Source of the DNA: a virus
Taxonomy: Duplodnaviria; Caudoviricetes
Strand: one strand, 5' to 3'
DNA: 64,000 nucleotides
Virus record (IMG/VR): IMGVR_UViG_3300032327_001202
Location: 18,828 to 82,827 of that record
This document shows, one piece after another, positions 2,149 through 61,279 of the stretch. The position numbers were made by a program, and so were the translations under genes. The notes beneath the pieces were generated by a model, which searched no databases, was not told the DNA's origin, and saw nothing but the letters and a program-made list of their open reading frames with translations. The stretch's first letter is position 1, and the number at the start of each line of letters is the position of its first letter.

Positions 2149-2242
2149 AATTAATATATATTATTTATATAATATAGTTTTTAAAAATTTTTTTTTGTTG
2201 AAAAATTTTTATATATTTGTATAAATAAAACAAAAAACAAAA

Positions 2243-3511
2243 ATGATAATCGAAAAAAATTTAGTGGAAATAATCCAAAATATTGATAGTCCTTTAAGTA
2301 AAACTTTTCTAAAATTAGAAAAGTTAAATCTTACTTCTATAGTACAACTATCAAATAAAGATTGGCATTTCCAAGTAGTAAACGGTAAGAAAAAAGAAAC
2401 CGTAAAAATGTTTAAATTTATCAATACTTATTTCCCAAATAAGTTTGAAAAAGATGAAGTTATTAGTTTTTGTGAAAAAATTATAACTAATTCTAAACCT
2501 AAACAAGTTACTACTAAAATAGAACCAAGACCATTTAAATATGAGCCTCTTAATGTAAGAGATACATTTATTTCATTAGTTACTGAAACTTATCCTCATG
2601 GATTTGAAGATGAAGTTTTAGCTTATCTTCCACAAGATCTAGAAATAGATGATTTTGGTAATTACTATAAAGTAATTGGTGATTCTGAAACAGTTTTTAC
2701 GAGTCATTTAGATACTGCTTTAAGAGAAAAATCTGATATTAATTTATATTCATTCTTTGTTAAAGAACAAGAGTTTATTAAAACAGATGAAACAACTATA
2801 TTAGGAGCTGATGATAAAGCCGGTGTTACTATCATGTTATATATGATGGCTAATAATGTTCCTGGTTTATACTATTTCTTCTTAGGTGAAGAAAGAGGGG
2901 GTATTGGATCTAAAAAGGTTGCTAATGATTTTATAGACAATCCACTTTTAAAAGGTAAAAAAAGAATGGTATCTTTTGATAGAAAGAATTATTATTCTAT
3001 CATAACATCACAATTAGGAGAAGCTTGTTGCTCAAATGAGTTTGCAGATGGATTATGTAATGAATTAAATAAAAATGGTTTGCATATGAAACCTGATGAT
3101 ACAGGTATCTTTACAGACTCTGCTAATTTTGTGGATTATATTCCTGAATGTACTAATATTTCTATTGGATATTTCAACGAGCACACTCATAAAGAGATTC
3201 AAAATATTTCTTATTTAGAAATATTGGCTAAGTGTTTAGTTGATGTAGATTGGGAAAACTTACCAACTGTTAGAAAGGCAGGTATTAGTGAACAATCTAT
3301 AATTAAACATGGTGACAAAATTAAGAAGTTAAGAAAGTTAGGTATTAAAAATACGCTTCATATTAAGGAGTTAAAGGGTAATTTATATACTATCTTAGAG
3401 GTAGATAATAAAAATCCTATGGGAATATATGAAGATTTATCTCTTTTAAGAGAAACTTTAGGAAGTATAGATTTAAGATTTTACAATTCAAATATTTTAA
3501 TAAAATTATAA
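2243..3511 (+). CDS. M28/M20-family zinc peptidase
   Basis: Metal-ligand motifs FTSHLDT, GADDKAG, GEERG, TDSA, GYFNEHT. Confidence 0.85.
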   Translation: MIIEKNLVEIIQNIDSPLSKTFLKLEKLNLTSIVQLSNKDWHFQVVNGKKKETVKMFKFINTYFPNKFEKDEVISFCEKIITNSKPKQVTTKIEPRPFKYEPLNVRDTFISLVTETYPHGFEDEVLAYLPQDLEIDDFGNYYKVIGDSETVFTSHLDTALREKSDINLYSFFVKEQEFIKTDETTILGADDKAGVTIMLYMMANNVPGLYYFFLGEERGGIGSKKVANDFIDNPLLKGKKRMVSFDRKNYYSIITSQLGEACCSNEFADGLCNELNKNGLHMKPDDTGIFTDSANFVDYIPECTNISIGYFNEHTHKEIQNISYLEILAKCLVDVDWENLPTVRKAGISEQSIIKHGDKIKKLRKLGIKNTLHIKELKGNLYTILEVDNKNPMGIYEDLSLLRETLGSIDLRFYNSNILIKL

Positions 3512-3768
3512 TGCAAGAGACAGTAGATAAAATGGTAGATTACTTAAATGAAAATTTTTCAGAGGAGTTCTACGTAGATTTTGAAGAAGATGAAAAAAAT
3601 AAAGTAGTCTTTATTCAGTTTTTGATGGATAAAGTTATTAGCATTGATAATGCTATAGATTTTTTTAGCAGAATCAATGATAGTAAAACTTTGTGTAAAA
3701 AACAAGAGTTTGAGTTATGGAAAACAAAGGAAGAAGAACCTATTATTCAAATAAGTTATATTATGTAA
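3511..3768 (+). CDS. Hypothetical protein
   Basis: 85-aa ORF translationally coupled to the peptidase (TAATG overlap). Confidence 0.7.
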   Translation: MQETVDKMVDYLNENFSEEFYVDFEEDEKNKVVFIQFLMDKVISIDNAIDFFSRINDSKTLCKKQEFELWKTKEEEPIIQISYIM

Positions 3769-3770
3769 TT

Positions 3771-3986
3771 ATGAGTACAATTAATGTAAAAATACAAACA
3801 AATAGAATTATTGGCGGTCTTAGAGATTGTATTAAATTATTTTTACAAGAAACTAAAGAAAAAGTATTAACTTTAGAAGTTTTAAAAAAATATAATTTTG
3901 AAGAAAAAGATTTATATGATATGAATCTAACTAAATCAAAAATAAGAGATTTTAAAATTAATAAAATATTAAAATTATGCCAGTAG
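3771..3986 (+). CDS. Small protein, RDxxI-motif family member 1
   Basis: Likely start ATG 3771 (just after the stop at 3768); C-terminus KKYNFEEKDLYDMNLTKSKIRDFKINKIL shared with the four downstream ORFs. Confidence 0.75.
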   Translation: MSTINVKIQTNRIIGGLRDCIKLFLQETKEKVLTLEVLKKYNFEEKDLYDMNLTKSKIRDFKINKILKLCQ

Positions 3987-4216
3987 TTTCATTAGATTTC
4001 GCAAGTTTATATCCTAGACCAATGGGTGATTTTTCTATGGGAGATGATTTTGATAAATCTACTAAGTATATATTAGATAGAAATAAAGATCATGATTATG
4101 TAGATCTTTTATTACTTGAAAAGTATGGGTTGGTAACAAGTAGTTTATTTGATTTTCCTTTTGTTCAAACAAAGGTAAGAGATTATGAGATAAATAAAAT
4201 ATTAGATAGTATATGA
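3977..4216 (+). CDS. Small protein: PolB motif A-like peptide (VVSLDFASLYP) plus RDxxI C-terminal domain
   Basis: N-terminus MPVVSLDFASLYP matches family-B polymerase DxxSLYP; C-terminus KVRDYEINKIL. Confidence 0.8.
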   Translation: MPVVSLDFASLYPRPMGDFSMGDDFDKSTKYILDRNKDHDYVDLLLLEKYGLVTSSLFDFPFVQTKVRDYEINKILDSI

Positions 4217-4467
4217 GTGATATAATCAGACAAGAACTTAAAAAAGTAATAAATAGTTTTTATGGAAGAAATCCCGATATAGAAACTGATTTTACTAAAT
4301 CTATAAAGTTTTTATTATCTAAATTGGATGTTAAGTTTTTAACATACGAGTTTGTAGAAAAGATAAAAGATAAATATGATATAGTATATACGGATTTGTC
4401 TGATTTTTCATTAGTTCAGATAAAGGTAAGGGATTATGAAATAAATAAAATCTTTAAAAGTATCTAA
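4213..4467 (+). CDS. Small protein: PolB motif B-like peptide (KKVINSFYG) plus RDxxI C-terminal domain
   Basis: QELKKVINSFYG matches family-B KxxxNSxYG; C-terminus KVRDYEINKIF. Confidence 0.75.
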   Translation: MSDIIRQELKKVINSFYGRNPDIETDFTKSIKFLLSKLDVKFLTYEFVEKIKDKYDIVYTDLSDFSLVQIKVRDYEINKIFKSI

Positions 4468-4497
4468 ACAAAAAAAATTATTTTTTTATCACTTTAT

Positions 4498-4791
4498 ATG
4501 AAAAGTAAAAGTGATTTAAAGATAAAATATGGTGATAACATCATAGACGAAATAGAAAATAAATTAGCAAAAGAAATATCTGATAGTATAAACAAGGATA
4601 TACTTAATAGTTTTAAGAAACCAAGTAAAATTTATCTACTTTCTTTAGTTGAAAATATTAATAATAAAGAAGGTGAGTTATTTATACTAATGGAAAAATA
4701 TGGTATTATAGAAAATGATTTATATAGCCTTGAAATTGTTAAATCAAAAATAAGAGAATATAATATAGATTTAATCTTAAAAAATAATTAA
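4498..4791 (+). CDS. Small protein: major-capsid-like helix plus RExxI C-terminal domain
   Basis: SDLKIKYGDNIIDEIENKLAKEISDSINKDIL aligns ungapped to this window's MCP segment EDIKANTGMDIVQKMESILVNELSQTISKQII; C-terminus KIREYNIDLIL. Confidence 0.75.
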   Translation: MKSKSDLKIKYGDNIIDEIENKLAKEISDSINKDILNSFKKPSKIYLLSLVENINNKEGELFILMEKYGIIENDLYSLEIVKSKIREYNIDLILKNN

Positions 4792-4807
4792 CTTTTTCAA
4801 AAATTTT

Positions 4808-5107
4808 TTGTATATTTGTATGGAAGAAAAAAATATAAATTATAAATCTTATATAGAGGAACAAATAAGTAAAAGTATTTCTTATTCTGATTATATATGT
4901 GATGAGTTAGATAAAACTATAGATTATGCTGATTACTTAAGTGATAAACTTGAAAGTGAAGTATTTTTAGTAAAATTACACACTGATATGAATTTATCAG
5001 ATATAATAGAAATGTATGATTTATCAGAAAAAGATCTTCATAAATTGAGTATAGTTAAGTTAAAAGTAAGAGATTATAAAATAAATTTATTACTAAAACA
5101 AGATTAA
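4808..5107 (+). CDS. Small protein: two scaffold-like 14-aa repeats plus RDxxI C-terminal domain
   Basis: KSISYSDYICDELDKTIDYADYLSDKLE vs protease/scaffold KSIKYSEYVAENLDKNIAYAEYIAENLD (14/28 identical by hand); C-terminus KVRDYKINLLL. Confidence 0.8.
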   Translation: MYICMEEKNINYKSYIEEQISKSISYSDYICDELDKTIDYADYLSDKLESEVFLVKLHTDMNLSDIIEMYDLSEKDLHKLSIVKLKVRDYKINLLLKQD

Positions 5108-5136
5108 AAAATATAATATATACATTACAAATACAT

Positions 5137-5495
5137 GGGGATGAAATGATTTAGATTCATGGAATTAATGGTAGAGATGCAAACATCGGATAATCCTAAC
5201 CCGATTAATAAATTGGATTAAAGTCTAAACGACAAAACAAATACAGTAGCAAGCCGTGAAGAATTAGTAGCCGCTCTACAAAACAACATCTTAAAGGTAA
5301 ACGAAGTAGCTTTTGCTTAATTGACAAAAACAAAAAGGTTTCCAAATAGTTAAAAATCTATTCAAAAATTTTCGGATTTGTTAGGGGTTCGTTAAAAACT
5401 AAATTAGTTTGTTATTTTATAAAAAAGTAACTACGTTTGTAAATGAGTTTCTATGATTAACCAGAGAAGACCCGAATTCGCCTTCGGCATCTCCA
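5137..5495 (+). ncRNA. ssrA: tmRNA (transfer-messenger RNA)
   Basis: 5' GGGGATG pairs with 3' CATCTCC(A), giving a 7-bp acceptor stem with the G3:U70 alanine determinant; T-arm GAC-CCGAA-TTCGCC-TTCGG; internal tag ORF 5225/5228-5320 ending ...VAFA*; terminator immediately downstream; CCA not encoded (CTA). Confidence 0.92.
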
Positions 5496-5500
5496 CTAAT

Positions 5501-5526
5501 AAATACCCCTTGATTGGGGTATTTTT
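5501..5526 (+). terminator. Rho-independent terminator after tmRNA
   Basis: AAATACCCC-TTGATT-GGGGTATTT followed by T-run. Confidence 0.8.
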
Positions 5527-5538
5527 AATTAAAATAAT

Positions 5539-5958
5539 ATGAATGATGATAACTTTGATAAATACCTAAAAATTAGTAATTTATCTTTAATAATTAAAAA
5601 AATAGGAGATAGAATAGATTTTATTGATAAAAATAAAATCTATGAAAATATAGATGGGTGTATTCGAGAATCTAATATAGATTTTATATTAGAACAACAA
5701 AAAGATTTTTATTTTCTTGATATAGAATACTTCAGAGGAAGAAACCCATTAAATAATAATTATTATCCTATAAATTATAAATTAATAGAAAGTGATATGA
5801 TTAAAATAAAAAAATTTAATCAATTATCAAAATCTAAAATAATTATTGTAGGAAACATTACTATACAAAAATTATATTATTCCGCAGACTTTATTGTAGA
5901 ATATATTGATTCTAAACCAAAAATTATTAAAAATAGATATTTTCCAATTTATGATTAA
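5539..5958 (+). CDS. Hypothetical protein with internal RExxI motif
   Basis: 139-aa ORF containing IRESNIDFILE; C-terminal SADFIVEY...KIIKNRY weakly recalls the DnaB/gp41 helicase C-terminus. Confidence 0.65.
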   Translation: MNDDNFDKYLKISNLSLIIKKIGDRIDFIDKNKIYENIDGCIRESNIDFILEQQKDFYFLDIEYFRGRNPLNNNYYPINYKLIESDMIKIKKFNQLSKSKIIIVGNITIQKLYYSADFIVEYIDSKPKIIKNRYFPIYD

Positions 5959-6277
5959 AGTAAGTTTAACCGCAAAAGAACAAATAATTAAATTAAAAAG
6001 TGAAGAACCTAATACAGGACAATACCTTAGAGTAGGGGTAAAGGGTGGAGGATGTAGTGGATTATCATACATCTTAGAATTTGATGATATATATGATAAA
6101 AAAATTGATGAACTTTTTGAAGATAATGATATAAAAATTATATGTGATAAAAGAAGTCTTCTTTATATATTTGGAACCGAACTAGTATTTTCAGGTGGTT
6201 TAAATGGTAAAGGATTCGAGTTTATCAATCCCAATGCAAGTAGAACTTGCTCTTGTGGAGAAAGTTTTTCAGTTTAA
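5951..6277 (+). CDS. iscA: HesB/IscA-family Fe-S cluster assembly accessory protein
   Basis: LRVGVKGGGCSGLSY and C-terminal CSCGESF; likely start MIKVS at 5951 rather than 5906. Confidence 0.95.
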   Translation: MIKVSLTAKEQIIKLKSEEPNTGQYLRVGVKGGGCSGLSYILEFDDIYDKKIDELFEDNDIKIICDKRSLLYIFGTELVFSGGLNGKGFEFINPNASRTCSCGESFSV

Positions 6278-6289
6278 AAAAATAATAAT

Positions 6290-6466
6290 ATGAACAAAGA
6301 TAAAATAGATTTATATAATTTTTTAGTAGATAACCCTTACTTTTCTAAGGAATATGTTATGGGAAAGATATTTAATTTTTCTTTTTCTGATATACAATAT
6401 ATCAATAATTTAGAACTAATGGAAAAAAGAAATAAAAAAATAGATGATTTATTAAATGAAGATTAG
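6290..6466 (+). CDS. 58-aa ORF (not in track): portal C-terminal-like peptide plus RNKKIDDLL
   Basis: Manual translation MNKDKIDLYNFLVDNPYFSKEYVMGKIFNFSFSDIQYINNLELMEKRNKKIDDLLNED*; PYFSKEYVMGKIFNFSFSDI aligns with portal PYFHVDFLVDKIMKLTPEEI. Confidence 0.75.
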   Translation: MNKDKIDLYNFLVDNPYFSKEYVMGKIFNFSFSDIQYINNLELMEKRNKKIDDLLNED

Positions 6467-6617
6467 TATTGATGAAATAATAACTTATGATATAGTAGCA
6501 TCTCCAGCACTTGGAAGTGCTAAACTAGTATATGATGAAGAGCTTAAACGAAAGAAAATATTAGAGGATATGGAGAGGAGAAATAAGATTTTAGATGAGT
6601 TATTAAAAGAGGATTAA
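6456..6617 (+). CDS. 53-aa ORF (not in track): prohead-protease-like peptide plus RNKILDELL
   Basis: Manual translation MKISIDEIITYDIVASPALGSAKLVYDEELKRKKILEDMERRNKILDELLKED*; TYDIVASPALGSA vs protease TYDIVADPGFASA (9/13 identical). Confidence 0.8.
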   Translation: MKISIDEIITYDIVASPALGSAKLVYDEELKRKKILEDMERRNKILDELLKED

Positions 6618-6638
6618 ATTAATTTAATCCTCTTTTTT
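6605..6638. terminator. Perfect 32-bp palindrome / bidirectional terminator
   Basis: AAAAGAGGATTAAATT-AATTTAATCCTCTTTT between convergent ORFs. Confidence 0.75.
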
Positions 6639-6641
6639 ATT

Positions 6642-6947
6642 TTAATATTCTTTTAAATCTGAGATTTCTAAATCATCTAATACAGATATTGCTTTATCTA
6701 ATCCACTTTTCCAATTAGGCCATTTTCTTCTATGCATTTCAACTGCTTCTTCTAAATCATGATATAAATCATCATTTCCAACTAAGTTATAATATTTATT
6801 TTTAAGTTTAGAAACTAATTGATATAAAACAGCATTATCAGTTTCATTTTTTAAGGCTTCAATTTCGGCTTTAAGTTCAGGAATAAACTCTTTTTTTAAT
6901 TGCCAATTACCTTCAAATAAATGAAGATATTTTAATTTTTTTTCCAT
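6642..6947 (-). CDS. Hypothetical protein with CTS-like leader
   Basis: 101-aa ORF starting MEKKLKYLHLFEG. Confidence 0.7.
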   Translation of the reverse strand: MEKKLKYLHLFEGNWQLKKEFIPELKAEIEALKNETDNAVLYQLVSKLKNKYYNLVGNDDLYHDLEEAVEMHRRKWPNWKSGLDKAISVLDDLEISDLKEY

Positions 6948-8951: not shown

Positions 8952-8984
8952 AAAAAAGAGGACTTATTTAGTCCTCTTTTTTTT
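8952..8984. terminator. Bidirectional terminator
   Basis: AAAAAAGAGGACT-TATTT-AGTCCTCTTTTTT between convergent genes. Confidence 0.75.
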
Positions 8985-9461
8985 ACCTCTTTTATTTATT
9001 GGAGGTGTATAATTTGTTGATGTGGATTGGGTAGATGGCGTAGTGTAAGCATAATCAAAATAAAATAAATTAGGGCTGGAACCTGTTTTATATAATTCAT
9101 GTTCTTCTTCTTTAAATTCCTCAAATTCTTTGTTTTCTAAAATAGAATCTAATTTTCTATCACGATTAATGGTAGCAACTTCTCGTTTAATTCTTTCTTT
9201 TTCCTCCTCTGAATTACCAAAACCTTTCATAGGGTTAACAGTAACTAAATCTATCCCTATTGTTTGAGCGGCTATTTTTTTAGCAATTGGTAATAAACTT
9301 GGAAAAGATTCATTTGACTGTGTCCCTACTAATGTAGTATCCATATTTATTTCATTTTTTAAATGAAGATTAGCATATTCGGTCATCCAGTTATTTACTA
9401 CAGATTGTGTAGATGATACATGATTCAAATCCCATTTATCTATTTTTATATTTGGTTTCAT
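8964..9461 (-). CDS. Truncated paralog of the major capsid N-terminal region with an inserted RDRKLDSIL helix
   Basis: WMTEYANLH vs MCP WMAEYAEYH; LLPIAKKIAAQTIGIDLVTVNP vs LLPVAMKIAAQTIGLDLVAVKP (17/22); LFYFDYAY vs LVYVDFQY after the insert. Confidence 0.85.
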   Translation of the reverse strand: MKPNIKIDKWDLNHVSSTQSVVNNWMTEYANLHLKNEINMDTTLVGTQSNESFPSLLPIAKKIAAQTIGIDLVTVNPMKGFGNSEEEKERIKREVATINRDRKLDSILENKEFEEFKEEEHELYKTGSSPNLFYFDYAYTTPSTQSTSTNYTPPINKRGKKKRTK

Positions 9462-9464
9462 ATT

Positions 9465-10568
9465 TTATATTATTTTTTCTTCTAAAATTATTTCTATATT
9501 TTGTTCATAAGAAATTTTTAATAATTCTTTTTTATTTTCCAAAACCCAATTATCTTTTAATTGGTCATTTCTTTTTACAACCTCAAATTGCTCTTCACCA
9601 CCAAAAAATTCTCTTGGCTCATAATGTTGAATACCATTAAACTCTATAAATAACCCCTTTTTAGGTAAATAAAAATCAAATCTATATGTAGAATTACCTA
9701 TTTTTTGTTTATATTCTTTAATGTATTCTATACCTTTTATATCTAACCAATTCTTTATTTGACGTTCTCCTTTTGATGAAGAACAATTAGGACAACCACA
9801 TTTATGATGTATAATATAATTAGGTTTAGCACTCCAAATATAATCACATACTTTACATTTATGTTTTAAATAAAAAAGAGACCCTATATATTTTTCACCA
9901 TCTACTAATTCTATATCATTTGGAAGAAGAGATAAATATTTTGTATGAGAAAATTTTCTACCAGAACAAGATGAACACCCTAATACTATATTAGCTATAT
10001 TTTTAGGCGTAGTGTTAAATTTCTCACCACATTTTAAACATTCAAAATCATGATTTTCTCTAAAATTAGTGTAATTTCCTATTAATTTTATATTCCTTTC
10101 TATTAATAATTCATTAAATTTATTAATATAGTTATATGATTTTTTGCTTAATAAATTTTTATCCTTTTTACATTCACAAATATATTTTGTGATTTGTTTA
10201 GGTGTTTTATTTATTATTTCATTACATATTTTACATTCAAAATTTATATACGTATTAGTGTTAATATAATTATCTACTCTAATAAAATCTAAATCTTTTA
10301 TTCTTAAATCAAATTCTTCATTTGTTATTTTTCTACCTAATGAAGAAAAACTATCGTTTGTTTCTTTTTTACATTCACATAATGTTCGATTATATAATTT
10401 AGGCTTTTTCATACTTTTTTTACCACATAACTTACATTCAAATTCTATTGGTGTTTCTGCATTAATATAATTACCGATTCTTATATAATCAGAATCTTTA
10501 ATTTTTAAATCAAAATCATTATTAGTAAATGCTTTTGGTCCTGACTTTTCGTTCTTTTTTATATACAT
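9465..10568 (-). mobile_element. Free-standing homing-endonuclease-like gene (CxxC repeats plus C-terminal PD-(D/E)xK/Vsr-like domain)
   Basis: Repeated FECKxC units, GCPNCSSSKGE, RFDFYLP..FIEFNGIQH; directly downstream of the capsid gene. Confidence 0.8.
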
Positions 10569-10667: not shown

Positions 10668-12410
10668 TTAGTTAAGGTAGCCATTAGCATCATTAACGTA
10701 GATAGTCATAAATTGTTTTTGTGGGAAGAAACCTAATTCAGCCACAGCATATCTTGATCTTAAAATCATTCTTGGAGCAAATGTTGCTTCTGACATGATT
10801 GAGATAGATTGTGCCATGAGGAATGGCACGAAACAGATACCTGGTTGATCAGGATTGTTTTTACGTCCGATTAAGATTCTGTTGTCATTGTATTTCATGT
10901 AAGGATCTACGTAGATAGTGATATCACCGATTTGACCTACAGGGTACATTTGACCGTTTGTGTTTAATTTAGATTTAAGTGGGTTAATTGTGTAACCTGC
11001 AACATCCATTAAAGCTGCTGCTAATCCACCATTTGTTACCGCATATTGTGCTGGTCCAACACGTCCTTCAGTTGCGATGTAGTTAGAAGCATGTACCATT
11101 TTAGTGATAAGCTTTCTTTGTACAGCGTGTGTAGTTTCACCACCTGGTCCTGCTTGAACATAAAGAGTATCTAAGTCAAATATAGTTTGTCCAGAGATGT
11201 TAGCGTTAGCATTTAAACCTGTGTATAAAGGAGCAGTTTGTCTGTTTATATTACCCATATCAAATACTTTAGCAATAATTTGCTTAGAGATAGTTTGAGA
11301 AAGTTCGTTTACAAGGATTGATTCCATTTTTTGAACGATATCCATACCAGTGTTAGCTTTGATATCTTCAATTTCTGTTCTACGTAATGCAGAACTTACT
11401 TCTACTGTACCAACTGTAATTGATTTAGAAGAAATTTTTGGTCCAATTGCACCTGCATATGTGCTTTCTTCTTCTTGACGAGCCATTGGGTATTGCCCAC
11501 CATTACCATTAAAGTTTGTAACATATCCTGGTAATTGATCTTCAAGAGCAGATACTAAGCTTATGCTTATAGCATTTGAGTTAGTAGACTGTCCAAATAA
11601 GTAGTTAATTTCTGAAACCATTGAACCACCTGCTGTAGCACCTGTAGTTGAAACGTTAAATGAGTTGTTTGCTTGATTTAAGCCATAAACAACACCACCA
11701 CCATATGCACCACCTGCCGCATTTGATTCTTTGTAAGCTCTGAATATAGGCTGTCCATCAATACGAGAGAAACCTAAGAACTCTAAGTAACCAAATTTGT
11801 TAGTTGGTTCAGTTGTAGTACTAGATACTGAAGTTGATGCAGTGAAACCTGTCCAAATTCTTGTACCAAATGCTAAACCACCTTGGTTTTGTTGAATACC
11901 TGCAGTAGTTAAAGCGCTATTAATAGCTGTATTTAATGAAGCACTTAAACCTGTAGAAGTTAAAGTAGCATTCCAAGCAATTTTGAATACTTGAGGTTTT
12001 GTGTTAAAGTTTGAAAGATTTAAATCGTCATATTGAAAATCAACATAAACTAAATCAATCTTTGGACCTGGAGTTGGCTTTACAGCTACTAAATCAAGAC
12101 CAATTGTTTGTGCAGCAATTTTCATAGCTACTGGTAATAGGTTTTGTCCTAAATCACCTGAACCTATGTTTGATGAACCATAGTTTGCACCAATTGTTGT
12201 ACCTGGGTAAGTACCAACTTGTGGAGCTAAAACAGCACCTAAACCACCTGTAGAAGCATTAAGGTAAGCGTTTTCGTTTATTGCATGGTATTCAGCATAT
12301 TCTGCCATCCATGAATATTTTTCTCTGTCCTCTTTGTTAACACCAATGTTTTCTAAAATTGGAGTCCATTTGTTAAGAGCTTTTTGTAAGTCAATTCTAA
12401 CTTGTGACAT
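10668..12410 (-). CDS. gp23: Major capsid protein (T4 gp23-like)
   Basis: KWTPILE N-terminus, EDIKANTGMDI..E..L..E helix, IYVDPY, F.P.M.L.SRYAV C-terminal motif; adjacent to protease and portal. Confidence 0.9.
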   Translation of the reverse strand: MSQVRIDLQKALNKWTPILENIGVNKEDREKYSWMAEYAEYHAINENAYLNASTGGLGAVLAPQVGTYPGTTIGANYGSSNIGSGDLGQNLLPVAMKIAAQTIGLDLVAVKPTPGPKIDLVYVDFQYDDLNLSNFNTKPQVFKIAWNATLTSTGLSASLNTAINSALTTAGIQQNQGGLAFGTRIWTGFTASTSVSSTTTEPTNKFGYLEFLGFSRIDGQPIFRAYKESNAAGGAYGGGVVYGLNQANNSFNVSTTGATAGGSMVSEINYLFGQSTNSNAISISLVSALEDQLPGYVTNFNGNGGQYPMARQEEESTYAGAIGPKISSKSITVGTVEVSSALRRTEIEDIKANTGMDIVQKMESILVNELSQTISKQIIAKVFDMGNINRQTAPLYTGLNANANISGQTIFDLDTLYVQAGPGGETTHAVQRKLITKMVHASNYIATEGRVGPAQYAVTNGGLAAALMDVAGYTINPLKSKLNTNGQMYPVGQIGDITIYVDPYMKYNDNRILIGRKNNPDQPGICFVPFLMAQSISIMSEATFAPRMILRSRYAVAELGFFPQKQFMTIYVNDANGYLN

Positions 12411-12490: not shown

Positions 12491-14695
12491 TTAAATGTTT
12501 TTGAATCTTTCTAAGATTGATTTGAAATCTGAATCAGATAGTTTATCTTCTTGTATTAAACTGTCATGAGAAATCATTTTTTTAGTTGATTCATTCTTTT
12601 TTAAGTTTCTAGTTAACCAAAAATGTTCAATTTTAGCTTCTGAATCCAATTCAGGATATAGTTTAGCTTGTGAAAGAATTGATTTTTTAGAACTTTCATT
12701 TGTTACTTCCCAAATTGATTTTATATTTTCTGGCATCAATCTGATTAGTCTTTCTTCTAATGATTCATTTTTAATAGAAAGTGCTTCTTGTATTAATTTT
12801 ATAACTTCTGAACTTGTGAAATAACTCTTTTCGTTTATGTAAAGTTTTACTTGTTCTTGCTCTTCGTTTGTTAAGCTATAATAGCTATCAACTTGAGACT
12901 TGTTTAAAAATTTTAAGAAATGTAGATCGTTTGTTTCAGAAACTTTACGTTTTCTAGCTTCTTCGATTAATAAATCTATTTTTTTACTTAAATCTGAATC
13001 TGTATTTTTATTTTCTAAGTAGTCTTCGTCTGCTTTAGATACATCTGGTAAACCTTCTAATTTTACTTCTTTACCTAATAATTCATCTTTGAAATCTGCT
13101 TCATTTGGAACCGCAGTATCAACTTTTTGTTCTTCTGGTAATTCAACTTCTGTTAATTCAGTATAATCTAAAGAAACTGGAGTTGCTTCATCAGCTTCAC
13201 CCGCTTTTTCAACACCATCTTCACCATGAAGTTCATCCTCACCACCTTCTAAATAGTTATCTGATTTATTATCAACATCATTTTCACCAAAACCATATTC
13301 TTCTAAAGTAGGAATAAGATTTGATTCATTACTTTCAAATAATTTAGTACCATTAACTTTTTCAGAAATTAAACCTGTATAAGATACAGCTTTATCTAAG
13401 TTTTCAGCAATGTATTGAGAATAAGAAATGTTATCATCAAGGTGTTCTGCTATATATTCAGAATATTTAATATTACCTTCTAAGTTTTCAGCGATATACT
13501 CAGAATAAGCAATATTACCATCTAAGTTTTCAGCTAAATATTCAGCATAAGAAATATTTCTATCTAAGTTTTCAGCTAAGTATTCTGCATAAGAAATATT
13601 CTTATCAACATTCTCAGCAATATATTCAGAATAAGAAATGTTTTTGTCTAAATTTTCAGCGATGTATTCAGAGTAAGAAATGTTTCTATCTAAATTTTCA
13701 GCGATGTATTCAGAATAAGAAATGTTCTTATCTAAGTTTTCAGCAATATATTCTGCATAAGCGATATTTTTATCTAAGTTTTCAGCAACATATTCAGAAT
13801 ATTTAATTGATTTGTTTAAGTTTTCAACTAAATAATCGTTATGTTCGATTAATCTATCAGTTGTATCTTTAAGAGATTTGTTCTCAGAAACAACAACTTG
13901 AATTTTTTCTGCTAAATAATCTAAGTATTTAACAACTTGAGAATTAGTTTTATTTAATTCTTCATAGTAGTTTAAAAGTTTTTCTAATTTAACTGGTTCT
14001 AAATTACCAGATTTAAGAGCACTTTTAACTTCTTTTTTAGTTGCAGCAATTTCATTAACTATATATTTCGAATAGTCTGACAATTGATCTTTCGTTACGA
14101 ATTCATTTTTGTTCATGTTAAATAATTCATTTATTTTTGATTCATTTGATACTTCATATATTCTGAAGTTAGCATCATTTGAATAATTTAAAGACTCATT
14201 TATAGAAGACATTCTCGCAGAAGCAAATCCCGGATCTGCAACTATATCATAAGTAAATAATTTTTTTAGTGATACTGTACCATCAGCTTCTGTAATACCA
14301 GCAGCTCTTGAAGATACAAATATAGGGCAACCATCATCAACTAAAGCCTTAGCTTCTTTTCCCCAATAGGTATTTAATAATTTAATTTGTCCTTCAACTA
14401 CATTTTTTTCTTTAACATAATATGCGGTTTTGATTAAATGGGATGCACGGGATAGTGAAGTGTCAAAGACGTCGGGGTGGTCAAACTCACCATAAACTAC
14501 TCCCATAGTAGAAATCCTGCTATTAAGTTCTTCTAAACAAGGCAAGAATCTTTCAGGAGTATATACTCTTTCATTCCTATTTTTAACCATAAACTCAGTA
14601 AAAGTACCTCCTAAAAGATAATCTTTTCTAGCATCTACACCTTCGTTCATTTTTAAAGGATTTGTATTATTTTCAATGATTAATACTGGCTTCAT
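12491..14695 (-). CDS. gp21: Prohead protease (gp21-like) fused to a scaffold-like region
   Basis: NRNERVY, YGEFDHP, VSSRAAG, TYDIVADPG protease motifs in the N-terminal ~170 aa; coiled-coil, repeat and acidic C-terminal region. Confidence 0.9.
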   Translation of the reverse strand: MKPVLIIENNTNPLKMNEGVDARKDYLLGGTFTEFMVKNRNERVYTPERFLPCLEELNSRISTMGVVYGEFDHPDVFDTSLSRASHLIKTAYYVKEKNVVEGQIKLLNTYWGKEAKALVDDGCPIFVSSRAAGITEADGTVSLKKLFTYDIVADPGFASARMSSINESLNYSNDANFRIYEVSNESKINELFNMNKNEFVTKDQLSDYSKYIVNEIAATKKEVKSALKSGNLEPVKLEKLLNYYEELNKTNSQVVKYLDYLAEKIQVVVSENKSLKDTTDRLIEHNDYLVENLNKSIKYSEYVAENLDKNIAYAEYIAENLDKNISYSEYIAENLDRNISYSEYIAENLDKNISYSEYIAENVDKNISYAEYLAENLDRNISYAEYLAENLDGNIAYSEYIAENLEGNIKYSEYIAEHLDDNISYSQYIAENLDKAVSYTGLISEKVNGTKLFESNESNLIPTLEEYGFGENDVDNKSDNYLEGGEDELHGEDGVEKAGEADEATPVSLDYTELTEVELPEEQKVDTAVPNEADFKDELLGKEVKLEGLPDVSKADEDYLENKNTDSDLSKKIDLLIEEARKRKVSETNDLHFLKFLNKSQVDSYYSLTNEEQEQVKLYINEKSYFTSSEVIKLIQEALSIKNESLEERLIRLMPENIKSIWEVTNESSKKSILSQAKLYPELDSEAKIEHFWLTRNLKKNESTKKMISHDSLIQEDKLSDSDFKSILERFKNI
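13390..13850 (-). repeat. Coding tandem repeat, about 10-11 copies of 42 bp (14 aa: NISYSEYIAENLDK)
   Basis: Directly visible in the translation and DNA of the protease/scaffold gene. Confidence 0.95.
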
Positions 14696-14831: not shown

Positions 14832-15236
14832 ATGTATAAAATTAATTTTGGTGATGAGAAAGTTTTTTTAAATTATTTAAAAGGTTTTGAAAATAAGTAC
14901 CATAAAAGACAAAAAGTATTAAATGAGATTTTAGAAATTAATGATAAAGATGATGAAGCATTAAGCTACTGGGATTTTACTGATAATAGTATAATATATG
15001 GTCAATTTTTTGATAAAAGATATGATAAAGATACATCTTTAAGTAATGTTTCACATTATGTTAAAAACATAGAAAAAATAAATGGGGAATATTTCGCAGA
15101 AATAAAAATATTAACTACTTATTGGGGTATAGCATTATTAGATTTAATTAATGCTGGAATAAAATTTCATTTAGAATGTGTCTATCATACTTATGAAAAT
15201 AAAAAAATAATTAGACTAGATATAAATGATTATTAG
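14832..15236 (+). CDS. Degenerate (likely inactive) paralog of the prohead protease domain, with an RQKVLNEIL motif
   Basis: IIYGQF..DTSLSNVSH..IKILTTYWG..LINAG aligns with protease VVYGEFDHP..DTSLSRASH..IKLLNTYWG..LVDDG; the HP and SSR motifs are absent. Confidence 0.75.
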   Translation: MYKINFGDEKVFLNYLKGFENKYHKRQKVLNEILEINDKDDEALSYWDFTDNSIIYGQFFDKRYDKDTSLSNVSHYVKNIEKINGEYFAEIKILTTYWGIALLDLINAGIKFHLECVYHTYENKKIIRLDINDY

Positions 15237-15564
15237 CAGAGAAATAGAAATAAAAGTAAATAACACAAATATAGGTTATTTACATAATTTAGGTTATGAG
15301 GTTAATAGAGGAGAATTATTATCAATTCCAATTGAATTACTTAGTCCTGGTAGTCATTACAAAATAAGTTGTAAATGTGATAAGTGTGGAATTATTAAAG
15401 ATATTTTATTTAAAAATTATATTAAATATGGAAATAAATGGGGAGAATATTTTTGTAGAAAATGTAGTGAAGATAAAAGAAAAAAATCTTTACAATTAAG
15501 TCATGGAGTAGATTACCCTATTCAAAATAAAGAAATACGAAATAAAATAAAGTTTAAAAACTAA
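15226..15564 (+). CDS. Zinc-ribbon protein resembling the N-terminal DNA-binding part of homing endonucleases
   Basis: CKCDKCG...YFCRKC and HGVDYP (compare KYGVEH repeats in 20258-21946); no nuclease domain. Confidence 0.6.
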   Translation: MIISREIEIKVNNTNIGYLHNLGYEVNRGELLSIPIELLSPGSHYKISCKCDKCGIIKDILFKNYIKYGNKWGEYFCRKCSEDKRKKSLQLSHGVDYPIQNKEIRNKIKFKN

Positions 15565-16342
15565 CTTGTATTCTTTCAAGTTGATATTTTCTTATATCTA
15601 TATTTTTATTAGATTTTAAAAAATCAACAATTTTTTCTAATAAAGTAATTGTGATTCTACAATCACTTAAAGCATCATGATAATTAGACATATTTATATT
15701 TAAAGCAGGACCAATTTTAGATAAACTTGAAGATATAAGTCCATTATCTCTAATAGAAGTACCAATTTTATTTATTAATTCTAAATATTCTAAATTCTCT
15801 TCTGATAATTTTTGAATACAAGGTATATAATATAATTGTATTAAATCTTTAGTATCTAAAACATCATTATTAAATGTTTTTATTCCACTTCTAATATTTA
15901 ACATCCTCATATCAAATTTTGCATTTTGTATTACAAAAATTGAATTTTTATATTGATTAGACCAATTCAAAAAATCATTTAATACTAAATTTTCATCTTC
16001 ATATTTATTTTTATTTTGTCCATAATGGTTAAATCTTAATACTTGTTTAATCCTAGAGTTTGAATTATTTTTGATTATATCTTTAGTTTTATCTGTTAAT
16101 TTAATTTTTTTATTAAATGAATCATTTTCCTTGAATTTATTCAAATTAAAATCATATGTGCATGAAACAGCACTGATTTGTGTAAGTTGTATATCATAAG
16201 GATCAGATTGAAATAACCCTGTAGTTTCAGTATCTAAAAATAAAAAATTATTATTTGATATTTTTTCTAACCAATTTAGAAAGTCTTCTATACTTTTATA
16301 GAATAATTTATTTTCATTTAATTCAAAAAACCTATTTACCAT
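15554..16342 (-). CDS. DEDDh 3'-5' exonuclease (DnaQ-like)
   Basis: FLDTETTG, QNAKFD, HDALSD motifs. Confidence 0.9.
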   Translation of the reverse strand: MVNRFFELNENKLFYKSIEDFLNWLEKISNNNFLFLDTETTGLFQSDPYDIQLTQISAVSCTYDFNLNKFKENDSFNKKIKLTDKTKDIIKNNSNSRIKQVLRFNHYGQNKNKYEDENLVLNDFLNWSNQYKNSIFVIQNAKFDMRMLNIRSGIKTFNNDVLDTKDLIQLYYIPCIQKLSEENLEYLELINKIGTSIRDNGLISSSLSKIGPALNINMSNYHDALSDCRITITLLEKIVDFLKSNKNIDIRKYQLERIQVSF

Positions 16343-16359
16343 ACATTATATATTAAAAT

Positions 16360-16387
16360 AAAAAAATCCTCTTAAAGAGGATTTTTT
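16360..16387 (-). terminator. Terminator after the portal gene
   Basis: AAAAAATCCTCT-TAA-AGAGGATTTTTT. Confidence 0.75.
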
Positions 16388-16394
16388 AGTTATA

Positions 16395-18128
16395 TTAAAA
16401 TTCAAACTCACCACCGCCAGCTTCACCACCAGCTTCAGGTGCAGGAGGATTTTCACCACCAGCTTCAGGTTCCGAAGCAGCTTCACCACCTTCAGGAGGA
16501 GTTTCACCACCCGCTTCAGGAACAGGAGCTTCAGGAGAAGGTCCTGCTTCTCCACCACCGCCTCCACCTTCTGGCATTCCACCTCCAGCAGCAGTTGATG
16601 ATCCAACCCCTTTTGATTTAATCCAATAAGCCTTATTTTCTTCAATTTCTTCGGGAGTTAATTTCATAATTTTATCAACAAGGAAATCAACATGGAAATA
16701 AGGTTGTTCACCATTCATAATTCCTAATAAAGTAGTCATTATGGTAGCTCTAGATTCCATATTTGCTAATTTTTTCCATTCTTCAAAAATCTGATTTGTA
16801 TTGAAAATAACATCAACTTGGTTAAGAAATACTTCATCATGTCTTAATTCAGGAAATTCCATACACATTTGAAGTTTAATTGGTTTAACAATTAGTTCTT
16901 TAATAATTGAACGTAAACGGCTAATAAAATTACCAAAGGTTATTTCATCTCTTGTCATTTCATTTGCAGCAGTCACTAACTGACCCCCACCATTTTCTTT
17001 TTCAAATCTTTGGAAAGGTATCTTACTTGCTCTTTTCAAACAATTCATAAACCAATTTAACATATTATCTTCATTAAGATTATGTCCTTGTGGAGAAATC
17101 AATTCCATATTTGGTGTACCTTGATCACCTTCTGGAAACCATATTTGTTTATTATATGGTAAGTGTTTACTACCACTAATAGTTAATGTACCTAATGAAT
17201 CATCAAATTCTACATCTTCAGAATAATCAGCTATTAATTGTGCAATTTGTTCCTCAGCTCTTTGTTTTGGTAAACCTTTAATAGGTATTGTAAACTTTTG
17301 ATAAACCATCGCATTAACTACGTTAAACATAATTCTTGTTTGTTCCATAATCTTTAATTGATTATATGGTTTAATAAGTCCTTCTACATAAGAAGTTTCG
17401 GAATAATCATGTTGAGTAGAATATGATATAAATACTATTTGCGAATCTAAGAAAATTCTTCTTAAAGCAGGATCTTCTGGATATTGTATCCAAATATTTC
17501 CTATACTTGGTTCATAAGCTGGAACAAGAGTTTCAGGTCTCATTCTATTAAAACTAATAATATTCTTTTTTGTATCATCCCATATAATTTCAACTGCGGC
17601 ATAACCATCAATTAAAAAATCTTTAGTCATATTCCAAGCAGTAATACCATCAGAAAAACCAAAACGACTGTATATTTTTTCAAAAAATTCTTGATATTTA
17701 TCTCGTATATCTTGTGAATAACTATTATTTAAAGGACTTGGAGAACAGAAATCTTTATCTTCATCATACACAATAATTTCATCGGCTAACACAGATACAA
17801 ATTCACGTATTTCATCCTTAATAGAATATTCTCTTAATATTCTTCTTTTATCTGAATACGCTTTATCTAAATAAGGAATTGATTTTTTGTTTAAAACTTG
17901 AGCGACTGCTCTTTGAGAAAAGAAAGCATACATAGAATCCGCTCTTTGAGCAAGAGGGTCTTCATTCATACCGACACCGATAGAATTTCTAAGTATCATA
18001 TCTTCATATTTTAGACCTAACCCTGAAAGGGATCTAAGAAGACGATTAAATATACCTTTATTTTCAACAGCAGAAGGTATAATATTTGGGTTTGTATTGC
18101 TATTTATTGGATTATATGATCCTGGCAT
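16395..18128 (-). CDS. gp20: Portal protein (T4 gp20-like) with Gly/Pro/Glu-rich C-terminal tail
   Basis: 577 aa in the head module; KRASKIPFQR, EMTRDEITFGNFISRLR motifs typical of gp20. Confidence 0.9.
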   Translation of the reverse strand: MPGSYNPINSNTNPNIIPSAVENKGIFNRLLRSLSGLGLKYEDMILRNSIGVGMNEDPLAQRADSMYAFFSQRAVAQVLNKKSIPYLDKAYSDKRRILREYSIKDEIREFVSVLADEIIVYDEDKDFCSPSPLNNSYSQDIRDKYQEFFEKIYSRFGFSDGITAWNMTKDFLIDGYAAVEIIWDDTKKNIISFNRMRPETLVPAYEPSIGNIWIQYPEDPALRRIFLDSQIVFISYSTQHDYSETSYVEGLIKPYNQLKIMEQTRIMFNVVNAMVYQKFTIPIKGLPKQRAEEQIAQLIADYSEDVEFDDSLGTLTISGSKHLPYNKQIWFPEGDQGTPNMELISPQGHNLNEDNMLNWFMNCLKRASKIPFQRFEKENGGGQLVTAANEMTRDEITFGNFISRLRSIIKELIVKPIKLQMCMEFPELRHDEVFLNQVDVIFNTNQIFEEWKKLANMESRATIMTTLLGIMNGEQPYFHVDFLVDKIMKLTPEEIEENKAYWIKSKGVGSSTAAGGGMPEGGGGGGEAGPSPEAPVPEAGGETPPEGGEAASEPEAGGENPPAPEAGGEAGGGEFEF

Positions 18129-40815: not shown

Positions 40816-41124
40816 ATGTCAAAAAAATTAACACAAGAAGAATATATAGAAAAAGTTAGGTTTATTCATAATAATAGTTATGAATATTCAAAAACTATCT
40901 ATACTGGTAATAAGAATAAATTAATTATTACTTGTATAGAATATGATGGAAAGCAACATTTCGAATCAATTGAATATTTTGGTAGTGAAGAATCATTAAA
41001 AAAGAAAAAAATAAAAGATTTTATTAAAGATAATTTTTGTTTAAAAAATAAAATTAATCTAATAAGAATACCTTATTATGATTTTGATAAAATTGAAAAA
41101 ATTATAGAAGAAATATGCCAATAG
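40816..41124 (+). pseudogene. Internally deleted homing endonuclease (DUF723-like N-terminus joined to the end of a PD-(D/E)xK domain)
   Basis: ..YTGNKNKLIITC joined directly to IEYDGKQH..LIRIPY; zinc fingers and the catalytic D are missing compared with 9465-10568. Confidence 0.75.
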
Positions 41125-60157: not shown

Positions 60158-61279
60158 TTATTTTTTATTTTTATAATTCTCTTCATATATTCTTAATATA
60201 TTTCCAAACTCATCTAATACTCCTGATTTAATTTTTTTATTATCCCATTCCATATTTGAAATATATCCTTGGATTATATCTTTATAATCATTTGATATTG
60301 TCAATACATCACCCTCATTTAAAATACTTGTTATATCTACTTGAGCAACTTCTTCTGTTTTTGAAGTAATATCATCTATATATTCTACACTCGTAAAATT
60401 ACCAGTTTCCAATACACCTTCAATTTTTCTTCTTAACTTTCTATTATTGATTAGTAAACTGTTAGAAATAAATAAATCAATCCAATCTTTTTTATCAATC
60501 TTATCCAAACTATCTATATCATCCTCTTTTCTTAAATAAATTTTCTTAAATTTAGGTGATACATTATTTGGTACAAATTTTTCAGTATCTAAATCAGTAT
60601 CTAAAATAAAAATACCCTTTTGATTATCTATATCATTTCTATCCATCTCATGTACAGATCCAACAAAAGTAAAGTTTTTATTTCTTTGTAGAATATGTAT
60701 ATGTCCTGAATATACCCCTTTATACCCATCAAAATCCTCTACATCTATTTTATGTAGGTTTTTATGTGCTACTGAATTTAAATGCATTCTTGCACCATTT
60801 AAATCAGAATGACAGAATAAAAAATCACTACCTGAGTTTTCTTTAAGAACTTCTACTTGATCACTTTTCTTTTCAACCCAAGGCATCATCAAAATAGATT
60901 TATTATTAAATTCTATTCGTTCAGGTTTTTCATAAATACTAACATTAGGAATATGTTTGAAACTTTTCAATGAGTTTATATCATTTGTAGATTTTGTATA
61001 TATATCGTGATTACCTATTAAAACATGTACAGGACAAATAGAAGTCATACGTTCTAATATATCTTGAGCATAATTTAAGATATTAATAGGAACTACGTCT
61101 CTGTTATCAAATAAGTCTCCTAATTGAACTATTATATCATCTTTATCTAATTCTCTTTCCATTAAAGGGAAAAGGAAGGTTTCACAATATTCTTGTGAAA
61201 CCTTAAACCATTTATCAACTTTATTAGGAAATCCAAGAGATAGATGGAAATCTCCTATTAAAAATATTTTATTTGCCAT
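60158..61279 (-). CDS. gp47: Recombination nuclease (T4 gp47 / Mre11 / SbcD family)
   Basis: Metallophosphoesterase motifs GDFH, GDLFD, GNHD, CHSD, GHIH. Confidence 0.9.
   Translation of the reverse strand: MANKIFLIGDFHLSLGFPNKVDKWFKVSQEYCETFLFPLMERELDKDDIIVQLGDLFDNRDVVPINILNYAQDILERMTSICPVHVLIGNHDIYTKSTNDINSLKSFKHIPNVSIYEKPERIEFNNKSILMMPWVEKKSDQVEVLKENSGSDFLFCHSDLNGARMHLNSVAHKNLHKIDVEDFDGYKGVYSGHIHILQRNKNFTFVGSVHEMDRNDIDNQKGIFILDTDLDTEKFVPNNVSPKFKKIYLRKEDDIDSLDKIDKKDWIDLFISNSLLINNRKLRRKIEGVLETGNFTSVEYIDDITSKTEEVAQVDITSILNEGDVLTISNDYKDIIQGYISNMEWDNKKIKSGVLDEFGNILRIYEENYKNKK

Follow-up and report, generated by a model that had tools for sequence, protein, structure and literature searches.

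A 64,000-nucleotide stretch of viral DNA (the window, bases 18828-82827 of the 82.8-kb IMG/VR viral contig IMGVR_UViG_3300032327_001202) carries at positions 3771-5107 a tandem array of five small co-directional genes, here called cassettes c1 to c5. Each encodes a protein made of a variable N-terminal segment, the front, followed by a common helical C-terminal domain, and at least three of the five fronts resemble conserved stretches of the phage's own family-B DNA polymerase, major capsid protein (MCP) and prohead protease-scaffold protein. The array is most likely a birth-and-death family of small accessory proteins in which a common handle is joined to a fragment of a core protein. Positions prefixed G000 refer to the whole 82.8-kb record and unprefixed positions to the window; L-numbers denote relative loci and P-numbers relative proteins used in the comparison. 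A further cassette, cX, lies between c3 and c4 in relatives. The cassettes in the window are as follows.

3771-3986, plus strand: c1, 71 amino acids; common domain with a short front without detectable source
3977-4216, plus strand: c2, 79 amino acids; residues ~3-19 resemble motif A of family-B polymerases, followed by the common domain
4213-4467, plus strand: c3, 84 amino acids; close paralog of c2, present in the window as a c3/cX recombinant
4498-4791, plus strand: c4, 97 amino acids; residues ~5-42 similar to an MCP helix, then the common domain
4820-5107, plus strand: c5, 95 amino acids; copies of the 14-residue protease-scaffold repeat at residues ~4-48, then the common domain

The same motif of ~35 residues closes all five open reading frames (ORFs), as an earlier note on this DNA had claimed. 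BLASTP expectation values (E) between cassettes range from 1e-5 to 3e-9 and profile-profile (hhalign) values from 1e-7 to 1e-16; by these comparisons, which lie far beyond chance similarity, the five are confirmed as true paralogs. The motif pattern given in the note fits c4 fully, and every other copy departs from it at one or two positions. The constant domain had been put at 30 residues. The shared C-terminus is real and longer, extending over ~50-55 residues between c4 and c5 and over 67 columns between c2 and c3 (hhalign E 1e-16), with the last 34 residues shared between c2 and c4. Because the shared region exceeds 30 residues, the different N-terminal halves of the original description shrink to the first 20-45 residues, which truly differ, the remainder being shared. 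The record holds five copies in total, all of them within the array. Cassettes c1 and c2 overlap by 10 nucleotides and c2 and c3 by 4, with spacers of 30 and 28 nucleotides between c3 and c4 and between c4 and c5; the starts of c1 (3771) and c5 (4820) were chosen after their orthologs. The spacers are short and AT-rich, no terminator-like hairpin occurs within 3771-5107, promoter-like sites there are not above shuffled sequence, and an Rfam scan of 3400-6700 at E<=1 finds no match inside the array.

The evidence for chimeric make-up comes from comparing the cassettes with the rest of the phage. Each cassette was searched against all 121 ORFs of the phage's own record, and each front was tested against eight core proteins with 400 shuffles per test, which gives a specificity matrix. 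The putative source genes are the following.

10668-12410, minus strand: major capsid protein (Gp23 family), source of the c4-like segment; Pfam Gp23 E 3e-27
12491-14695, minus strand: prohead protease and scaffold-like fusion, 734 amino acids, source of the fronts of c5 and of d2, a mini-gene described below
G000:11394-12932, minus strand: PolB-A, 512 amino acids, outside the window (5.9-7.4 kb before its start)

The front of c5 matches the 14-residue repeats of the 734-residue protein with BLASTP E 1.5e-10 and a shuffle z-score of 16.5, and its ortholog in L010 does so with E 2e-19. The source protein has an S77-like protease at residues ~17-138 (Peptidase_S77 E 0.003), about ten tandem 14-residue repeats and an acidic tract; it is read as a protease-scaffold fusion because its N-terminus is a T4 gp21-type prohead protease. 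In T4 the prohead protease and the scaffold are separate genes (21 and 22). The front of c4 matches residues 348-395 of the phage's own MCP (BLASTP E 2e-4; shuffle z=8.2, reached by 0 of 400 shuffles; hhalign over 38 columns, E 4e-4). The MCP segment 347-385 is invariant across the clade, and a divergent c4 ortholog, P0160, scores 28.1 bits on Pfam Gp23, over the cut-off of 24.4.

The front of c2 resembles motif A of the phage's own PolB-A, with 9 of 17 residues identical, and this is its best match among the 121 ORFs. PolB-A is likewise the top match for c2 from three lineages (shuffle z=6.2, 0 of 400). Against the PolB-A of the related genome LR756504, hhalign aligns 12 columns (E 3e-4), and eight consecutive c2 residues are identical to that protein, including an unusual arginine following the SLYP core. 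The core D-F-x-S-L-Y is kept in c2-type proteins that are less than 50% identical (P0162, P0166), and the motif residues are also kept in L030, the most divergent relative. At the DNA level the array matches none of the source genes, the motif A codons agreeing at 20 of 36 bases, and recent gene conversion is therefore excluded.

The remaining fronts are less informative. Those of c1 and cX match none of the core proteins tested. The front of c3 bears a weak likeness to motif B, visible by eye and in hhalign over 14 columns (E 0.007), with a single-sequence shuffle z of ~1, and each of its positions has a counterpart in the c2 front; the preferred reading is that c3 arose by duplication of c2 and that its front then drifted.

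In this phage group two genes encode the family-B polymerase, with the break in the fingers domain: PolB-A comprises the exonuclease domain and motif A, and PolB-B comprises motifs B and C and the thumb, with an intein at motif C in some homologs (Pfam PF14890). In LR756504 the two halves lie at 256913-257305 and 538061-539188, ~280 kb apart. No PolB-B of the clade's 633-636 kb scaffolds is among the best 120 homologs of LR756504 PolB-B, and scans of viral contigs for PolB-B return self or near-self matches only. The array was also considered as a fragmented polymerase (motif A in c2, B in c3, C in c4), a reading that was rejected, as the c4 front is capsid-like and not motif C. Nor is c3 a motif B piece, its front matching c2 column for column without significant likeness to PolB-B. 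The constant domain is unrelated to PolB-B, an apparent hidden Markov model match of cX to PolB-B positions 128-179 being lost under shuffles and hhalign. An assignment of c2 and c3 to the family-B DNA polymerases, which are marked by palm, fingers and exonuclease domains and all three motifs, also fails: only a stretch of 12-17 residues in c2 is motif A-like, and PF00136 is unmatched throughout the record.

The common domain is a helical C-terminal domain of ~55 residues, with the highest conservation in the last 35. AlphaFold2 (AF2) predicts a confident, compact helical fold in both cassettes modelled. The c3 model, built from the family alignment, is a compact five-helix bundle with a predicted local distance difference test score (pLDDT) of 88 and a predicted template modelling score (pTM) of 0.74. 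In the c4 model a long, separate N-terminal helix (pLDDT 60-78), which is the capsid-like segment, precedes a compact C-terminal domain at residues 42-96 (pLDDT 90-98). No Pfam (E<=0.1) or PHROG family matches the cassettes. Searches with the c3 model against PDB and BFVD (Foldseek) and with VIA-align wide give generic helical matches only (best E 0.38, best Z 5.1), and the c2 and c3 sequences have no meaningful match in PDB.

An exhaustive profile search of 1.84 billion representatives at E<=1e-3 finds the domain in 63 clusters. Almost all are proteins of 54-140 residues with the domain at the extreme C-terminus, and a few have two copies. The conserved core is a helical domain of ~40 residues, and all five cassettes match the profile of this C-terminus with E 2e-15 to 9e-21. 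The fronts within the family are mutually unrelated and include low-complexity stretches, a transmembrane helix and collagen-like repeats that match tail-fibre PHROGs. Rows of three to five copies also occur in two unrelated contigs, L028 and L029. These profile matches define a family of small phage proteins, as yet unnamed, whose members tend to be arranged in tandem rows. Among proteins of 140-2000 residues no longer or fused relative of c2 scored, which is weak evidence owing to word crowding.

The phage is most likely a T4-related megaphage of ~635 kb. Its record (CheckV completeness 15%, G+C ~24%) encodes T4-type head and tail genes, among them a Gp23 capsid protein, a Gp20-type portal, a sheath and a large terminase. 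The genome size is suggested by 68-74% identity over short stretches to the 634-642 kb 'Mahaphage' genomes LR756502, LR756504 and LR745206, together with metagenome scaffolds of 633,298 and 635,887 bp that carry syntenic loci. The predicted hosts of those 'Mahaphage' genomes are Bacteroidetes (PMC7162821).

Among the relatives, which are megaphages of 633-636 kb, the array has 3 to 6 cassettes. It is flanked in all of them by conserved genes, in the order peptidase, 85-residue ORF, array, RNA gene, 139-residue ORF, Fe-S protein and the mini-genes d1/d2. The cassettes compare as follows.

window: c1, c2, c3, c4, c5
L006, L007: c1, c2, c3, cX, c4, c5
L008, L010, L012: c2, c3, cX, c4, c5
L030 (most divergent): c2, cX, c4

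The order of the cassettes is invariant and only their presence or absence varies. Orthologous cassettes are stably inherited across lineages, with a synonymous divergence of 0.2-0.8. In a DNA alignment the window c3 is identical to the c3 of L006 up to ~4441-4450, within the codons of the constant domain, and then continues as the end of cX and the cX-c4 spacer. The window thus lacks cX through a derived deletion, an unequal crossover having joined two adjacent constant segments in frame. The lineage L008-L013 has lost c1, with its last 4 codons left and fused to the preceding ORF; only one breakpoint of this deletion falls at the constant domain. Individual cassettes also change: L011 has a truncated cX, a frameshift splits c5 in both L008 and L011, the number of repeats in the c5 front differs among relatives, this front is largely replaced in L006, and the c4 of L007 is without its first 15 residues. 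In L009, c3 and cX seem to be absent where a run of N marks an assembly gap (L009:8240-8345), and this absence is not taken as evidence of deletion because it coincides with the gap. The comparison across relatives foreseen in the earlier note yields gain and loss of cassettes, one loss having its breakpoint inside the constant-domain codons, without a change of order. A fixed array with mutually homologous N-terminal halves had been named there as speaking against modularity; the array is not fixed, yet homology between c2 and c3 extends almost from end to end, so that half of that pattern is present.

The cassettes evolve fast. Ratios of non-synonymous to synonymous divergence (dN/dS, Nei-Gojobori; noisy, at 30-100 codons per estimate) are 0.25-1.2 for cassettes and 0.05-0.12 for the flanking genes, and c1 differs between the window and L006 by 6 non-synonymous and 0 synonymous changes. 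Within c2 the N-terminal front is constrained, at 0.11-0.15 in three pairs, and the constant domain has 0.5-0.7.

A similar make-up is seen elsewhere in the record. Two overlapping mini-genes downstream of the array share a C-terminal tail different from that of the cassettes, the C-domain profile of the cassettes matching neither, and their fronts again point to head proteins, in d1 only weakly. They have the same design with another tail and are treated as context, not as members of the family. Four further ORFs are partial paralogs of core proteins of the phage.

6290-6466, plus strand: d1 mini-gene; weak match of its front to the C-terminal region of the portal (z=2.5, PHROG portal E 0.01)
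6456-6617, plus strand: d2 mini-gene; front matching the protease domain at its end (z=7.9, BLAST E 1.4e-4)
8964-9461, minus strand: partial paralog of the capsid N-terminus, 165 amino acids; MCP residues 21-115, 36%, E 3e-8
14832-15236, plus strand: partial protease paralog, 134 amino acids; protease residues 66-125, E 5e-5
61269-62690, minus strand: partial portal paralog, 473 amino acids; portal residues 260-345, 38%, E 5e-15
40816-41124, plus strand: 102-residue ORF matching the 367-residue protein at 9465-10568, 47%, E 3e-9

In the birth-and-death reading the array has grown by tandem duplication, c2 giving rise to c3, and c4 to c5 with a new front, and has shrunk through unequal crossing-over within the constant segment and through deletion of whole cassettes. 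The fronts of c2, c4 and c5 are old protein-level copies of conserved stretches in the phage's own essential proteins. From this arrangement we infer that the handle presents a core-protein segment and thereby occupies the normal binding partner of that segment, to the benefit of the phage. Such a partner might be a host protein that senses conserved proteins of phages, in which case the cassette protein would act as a decoy, or an assembly or replication partner, in which case it would be a competitive modulator. That the proteins act as molecular mimics of either kind, as decoys or competitive binders, is suggested by the front matches with a probability that falls a little short of even.

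Several observations weigh against mimicry. The front matches are short (12-45 residues), with hhalign probabilities of only 33-38%, and the c4 match sits on an amphipathic helix, where composition helps. No source is detectable for c1 and cX, and in c3 the front is most readily taken as a c2 front that has diverged, so that the mimic design is limited to three of the five copies in the window. Among distant members of the domain family, most have fronts of low complexity without a recognisable source. Several fronts are near neutrality in some pairs (dN/dS 0.85-1.3), as unconstrained filler would be. Motif A of family-B polymerases is buried in the active site, and so would be an odd bait.

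The strongest alternative is that the cassettes are neutral chimeras. Function would then lie in the C-terminal domain alone, and the fronts would be filler acquired by illegitimate recombination or template switching at duplication; abundant or conserved phage genes would simply have been at hand, and the similarity to them would be decaying history. A front dN/dS of ~1 in several pairs is what such filler would show, as is the replacement, truncation or expansion of fronts between close relatives (L006 c5, L007 c4). The lack of an identifiable source for c1 and cX also fits, as does the finding that in most of the distant family members the front is unrelated or of low complexity, or consists of a transmembrane helix or of collagen-like repeats. 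Decaying history accounts less well for diagnostic residues that are kept below 50% identity though DNA similarity to the sources is erased, and for the c2 front, where constraint exceeds that on the constant domain of c2 (0.11-0.15 against 0.5-0.7). It would also have to explain why the d1/d2 pair repeats the design with a different tail. Neutral chimerism is judged somewhat unlikely.

A broader version of the mimic reading takes the array, d1/d2 and the other partial paralogs together as a 'self-mimic library', with one essential-protein epitope per handle. Such a library would sequester or block the host's immune sensors for these conserved proteins, or else disrupt assembly and replication in competing phages, and an arms race would drive the gain, loss and re-fronting of its cassettes. 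This extension is doubtful, more so than neutral chimerism. Conserved phage proteins, among them the capsid protein, the portal, the terminase and replication proteins, are frequent targets of immune sensors in bacteria. If true, phages that carry small expendable copies of the sensed segments would represent an undescribed counter-strategy, and the library would be a bacteriophage counterpart of the decoy idea put forward for Bodo saltans virus (BsV) and perhaps a general strategy of giant phages. Independently of mimicry, the locus is a clean natural example of how new small phage genes originate: tandem duplication multiplies a constant domain, pieces of other genes supply new fronts, and unequal crossing-over removes copies.

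Among published systems the array is closest to the ankyrin-repeat ORFs of BsV, whose 5' parts are fragments of essential viral genes and for which a decoy role has been proposed (Deeg et al. 2018, eLife; PMC5871332). Both form directional tandem arrays in which an N-terminal fragment of an essential protein, DNA polymerase among others, precedes a common C-terminal domain. Both also evolve fast, by the 'genomic accordion' in BsV and by changes in copy number between relatives here. A front that is a fragment of an essential protein is found in c2, c4 and c5; it is undetectable in c1 and weak in c3. BsV is a giant virus of a eukaryote with 148 ankyrin-repeat copies of hundreds of residues, whereas the present array belongs to a bacteriophage and has 3-6 copies of 70-120 residues with a novel small helical domain, its fragments coming mainly from head-assembly proteins. 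Because the common domain is small and helical and not ankyrin (no Pfam match; AF2 models), the array is an analogue of the BsV fusions and not a member of that group. Tandem paralog families of jumbo and mega-phages share lineage-specific expansion, unequal crossing-over and relaxed constraint with the array, and differ in that the fronts here are specifically related to segments of the phage's own polymerase, capsid and scaffold.

The closest phage system, with its layout reversed, is the internal-protein locus of T-even phages, and it raises the possibility that the cassettes encode capsid-internal (ejected) proteins. Their fronts would then act like the T4 capsid targeting sequence, carrying the domain into the prohead core and being trimmed by the protease. 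The array adjoins head-morphogenesis genes of a T4-like phage and the c5 front is made up of the scaffold's own repeat, which the T4 targeting sequence resembles. In addition, a late-promoter-like TATAAATA lies 16 nucleotides upstream of the operon's first gene, a motif that is not enriched in the window. The T-even proteins IPI, IPII and IPIII have a capsid targeting sequence and a polymorphic ip locus, the proteins being diverse and fast-changing with only the targeting sequence in common (PMC3012670, citing Repoila et al. 1994; PMC9026906). As in that locus, a T4-type phage here carries a row of small, fast-diverging genes with one constant element and unrelated remainders; the T-even ip genes are individually dispensable, and in the present array the scaffold-like front of c5 hints at a connection with the prohead core. 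The constant element of T4, however, is a cleaved N-terminal leader of 10 residues followed by varying payloads, whereas here it is a folded C-terminal domain behind a short variable front. A shared N-terminal leader of ~10 residues ending at a prohead-protease site, as in T4-type internal proteins, is not found: the cassettes have no conserved leader, their N-termini differ, and only c5 is scaffold-like. With the constant part as the would-be payload and the variable part as the would-be address, this reading therefore calls for five addresses for one cargo, and the c2 front derives from a replication protein and not a head protein. A capsid-internal role is quite improbable.

The earlier note had proposed that the DNA of the constant domain acts as a recombination anchor for swapping N-terminal payloads in a modular display array. 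The proposal is partly right. The 29-mers quoted at 4173 and 4423 agree at 27 of 29 positions, the longest near-identical run (c2 against c3), and the constant segment overall is 64-72% identical between copies. One in-register crossover did fall inside the constant-domain codons, and c4 and c5 carry the domain behind unrelated fronts, so that recombination in this segment stands, as ordinary unequal crossing-over only. A programmed system of high-frequency payload shuffling with a dedicated anchor is highly improbable and largely refuted, given the low DNA identity of the constant segments, a cassette order invariant in all relatives, the stable inheritance and synonymous divergence noted above, an own start codon and intact frame in every window cassette with no separate expression site, and the finding that neither the locus nor the record holds a recombinase or a reverse transcriptase (RVT_1 unmatched in this 82.8-kb genome fragment).

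In hyperplastic regions of T4-type genomes, modular shuffling is mediated by PeSLs (Arbiol et al. 2010, PMC2839356; PMC4122927), and small accessory genes are likewise gained and lost between close relatives through recombination of short repeats. PeSLs are non-coding elements, a promoter and a stem-loop flanking ORFs, whereas the repeat here is coding, being the constant domain itself; a sigma-70-like promoter and a terminator stem-loop for each ORF are not found, the cassettes being joined by overlaps or by spacers of 28-30 nucleotides without stem-loops. Systems of the diversity-generating retroelement or pilS type would be marked by a reverse transcriptase with template and variable repeats, or by silent, promoterless donors. 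RVT_1 has no match in the 82.8-kb record, a fragment of the genome, and there are no silent donor copies because all five cassettes have starts and intact frames.

Several features surround the array. A strong terminator (6605-6636) ends the operon. The apparently intergenic 430 nucleotides that follow c5 show 95% identity among five relatives, far above the conservation of the neighbouring genes, and contain a candidate transfer-messenger RNA (tmRNA) at 5137-5498 (plus strand) with a terminator hairpin at ~5499-5526. The candidate aligns with full-length RF00023 (positions 1-374) at 22.2 bits (E 4e-7), short of the gathering score of 47. Its acceptor stem has a G-U as third pair, a T-arm is present, and the terminator has one compensatory pair. 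ARAGORN reports no tmRNA, and the Rfam match is lost when a larger stretch is scanned. The likely tag frame (5222-5320) is unusually long at ~31 codons and ends in A-F-A, with no alanine resume codon at the usual place.

A motif of ~25 nucleotides, with runs of A and T and a TTGTAT end, occurs at 2198-2227 and 4795-4819 (plus strand), preceding the peptidase gene and c5. The peptidase-side copy runs on into the T4 late-promoter-like TATAAATA at 2220-2227, and a second TATAAATA at 2162-2169 (minus strand) faces a divergent gene; across the window 43 are found against 42.6 expected. The operon opens with the peptidase gene itself (2243-3511, plus strand), which encodes 422 amino acids and matches PHROG 4191 with E 4e-66. 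A paralog of this peptidase, 53% identical over 247 residues, lies at G000 15530-16639 (minus strand), ~2.2-3.3 kb before the start of the window.

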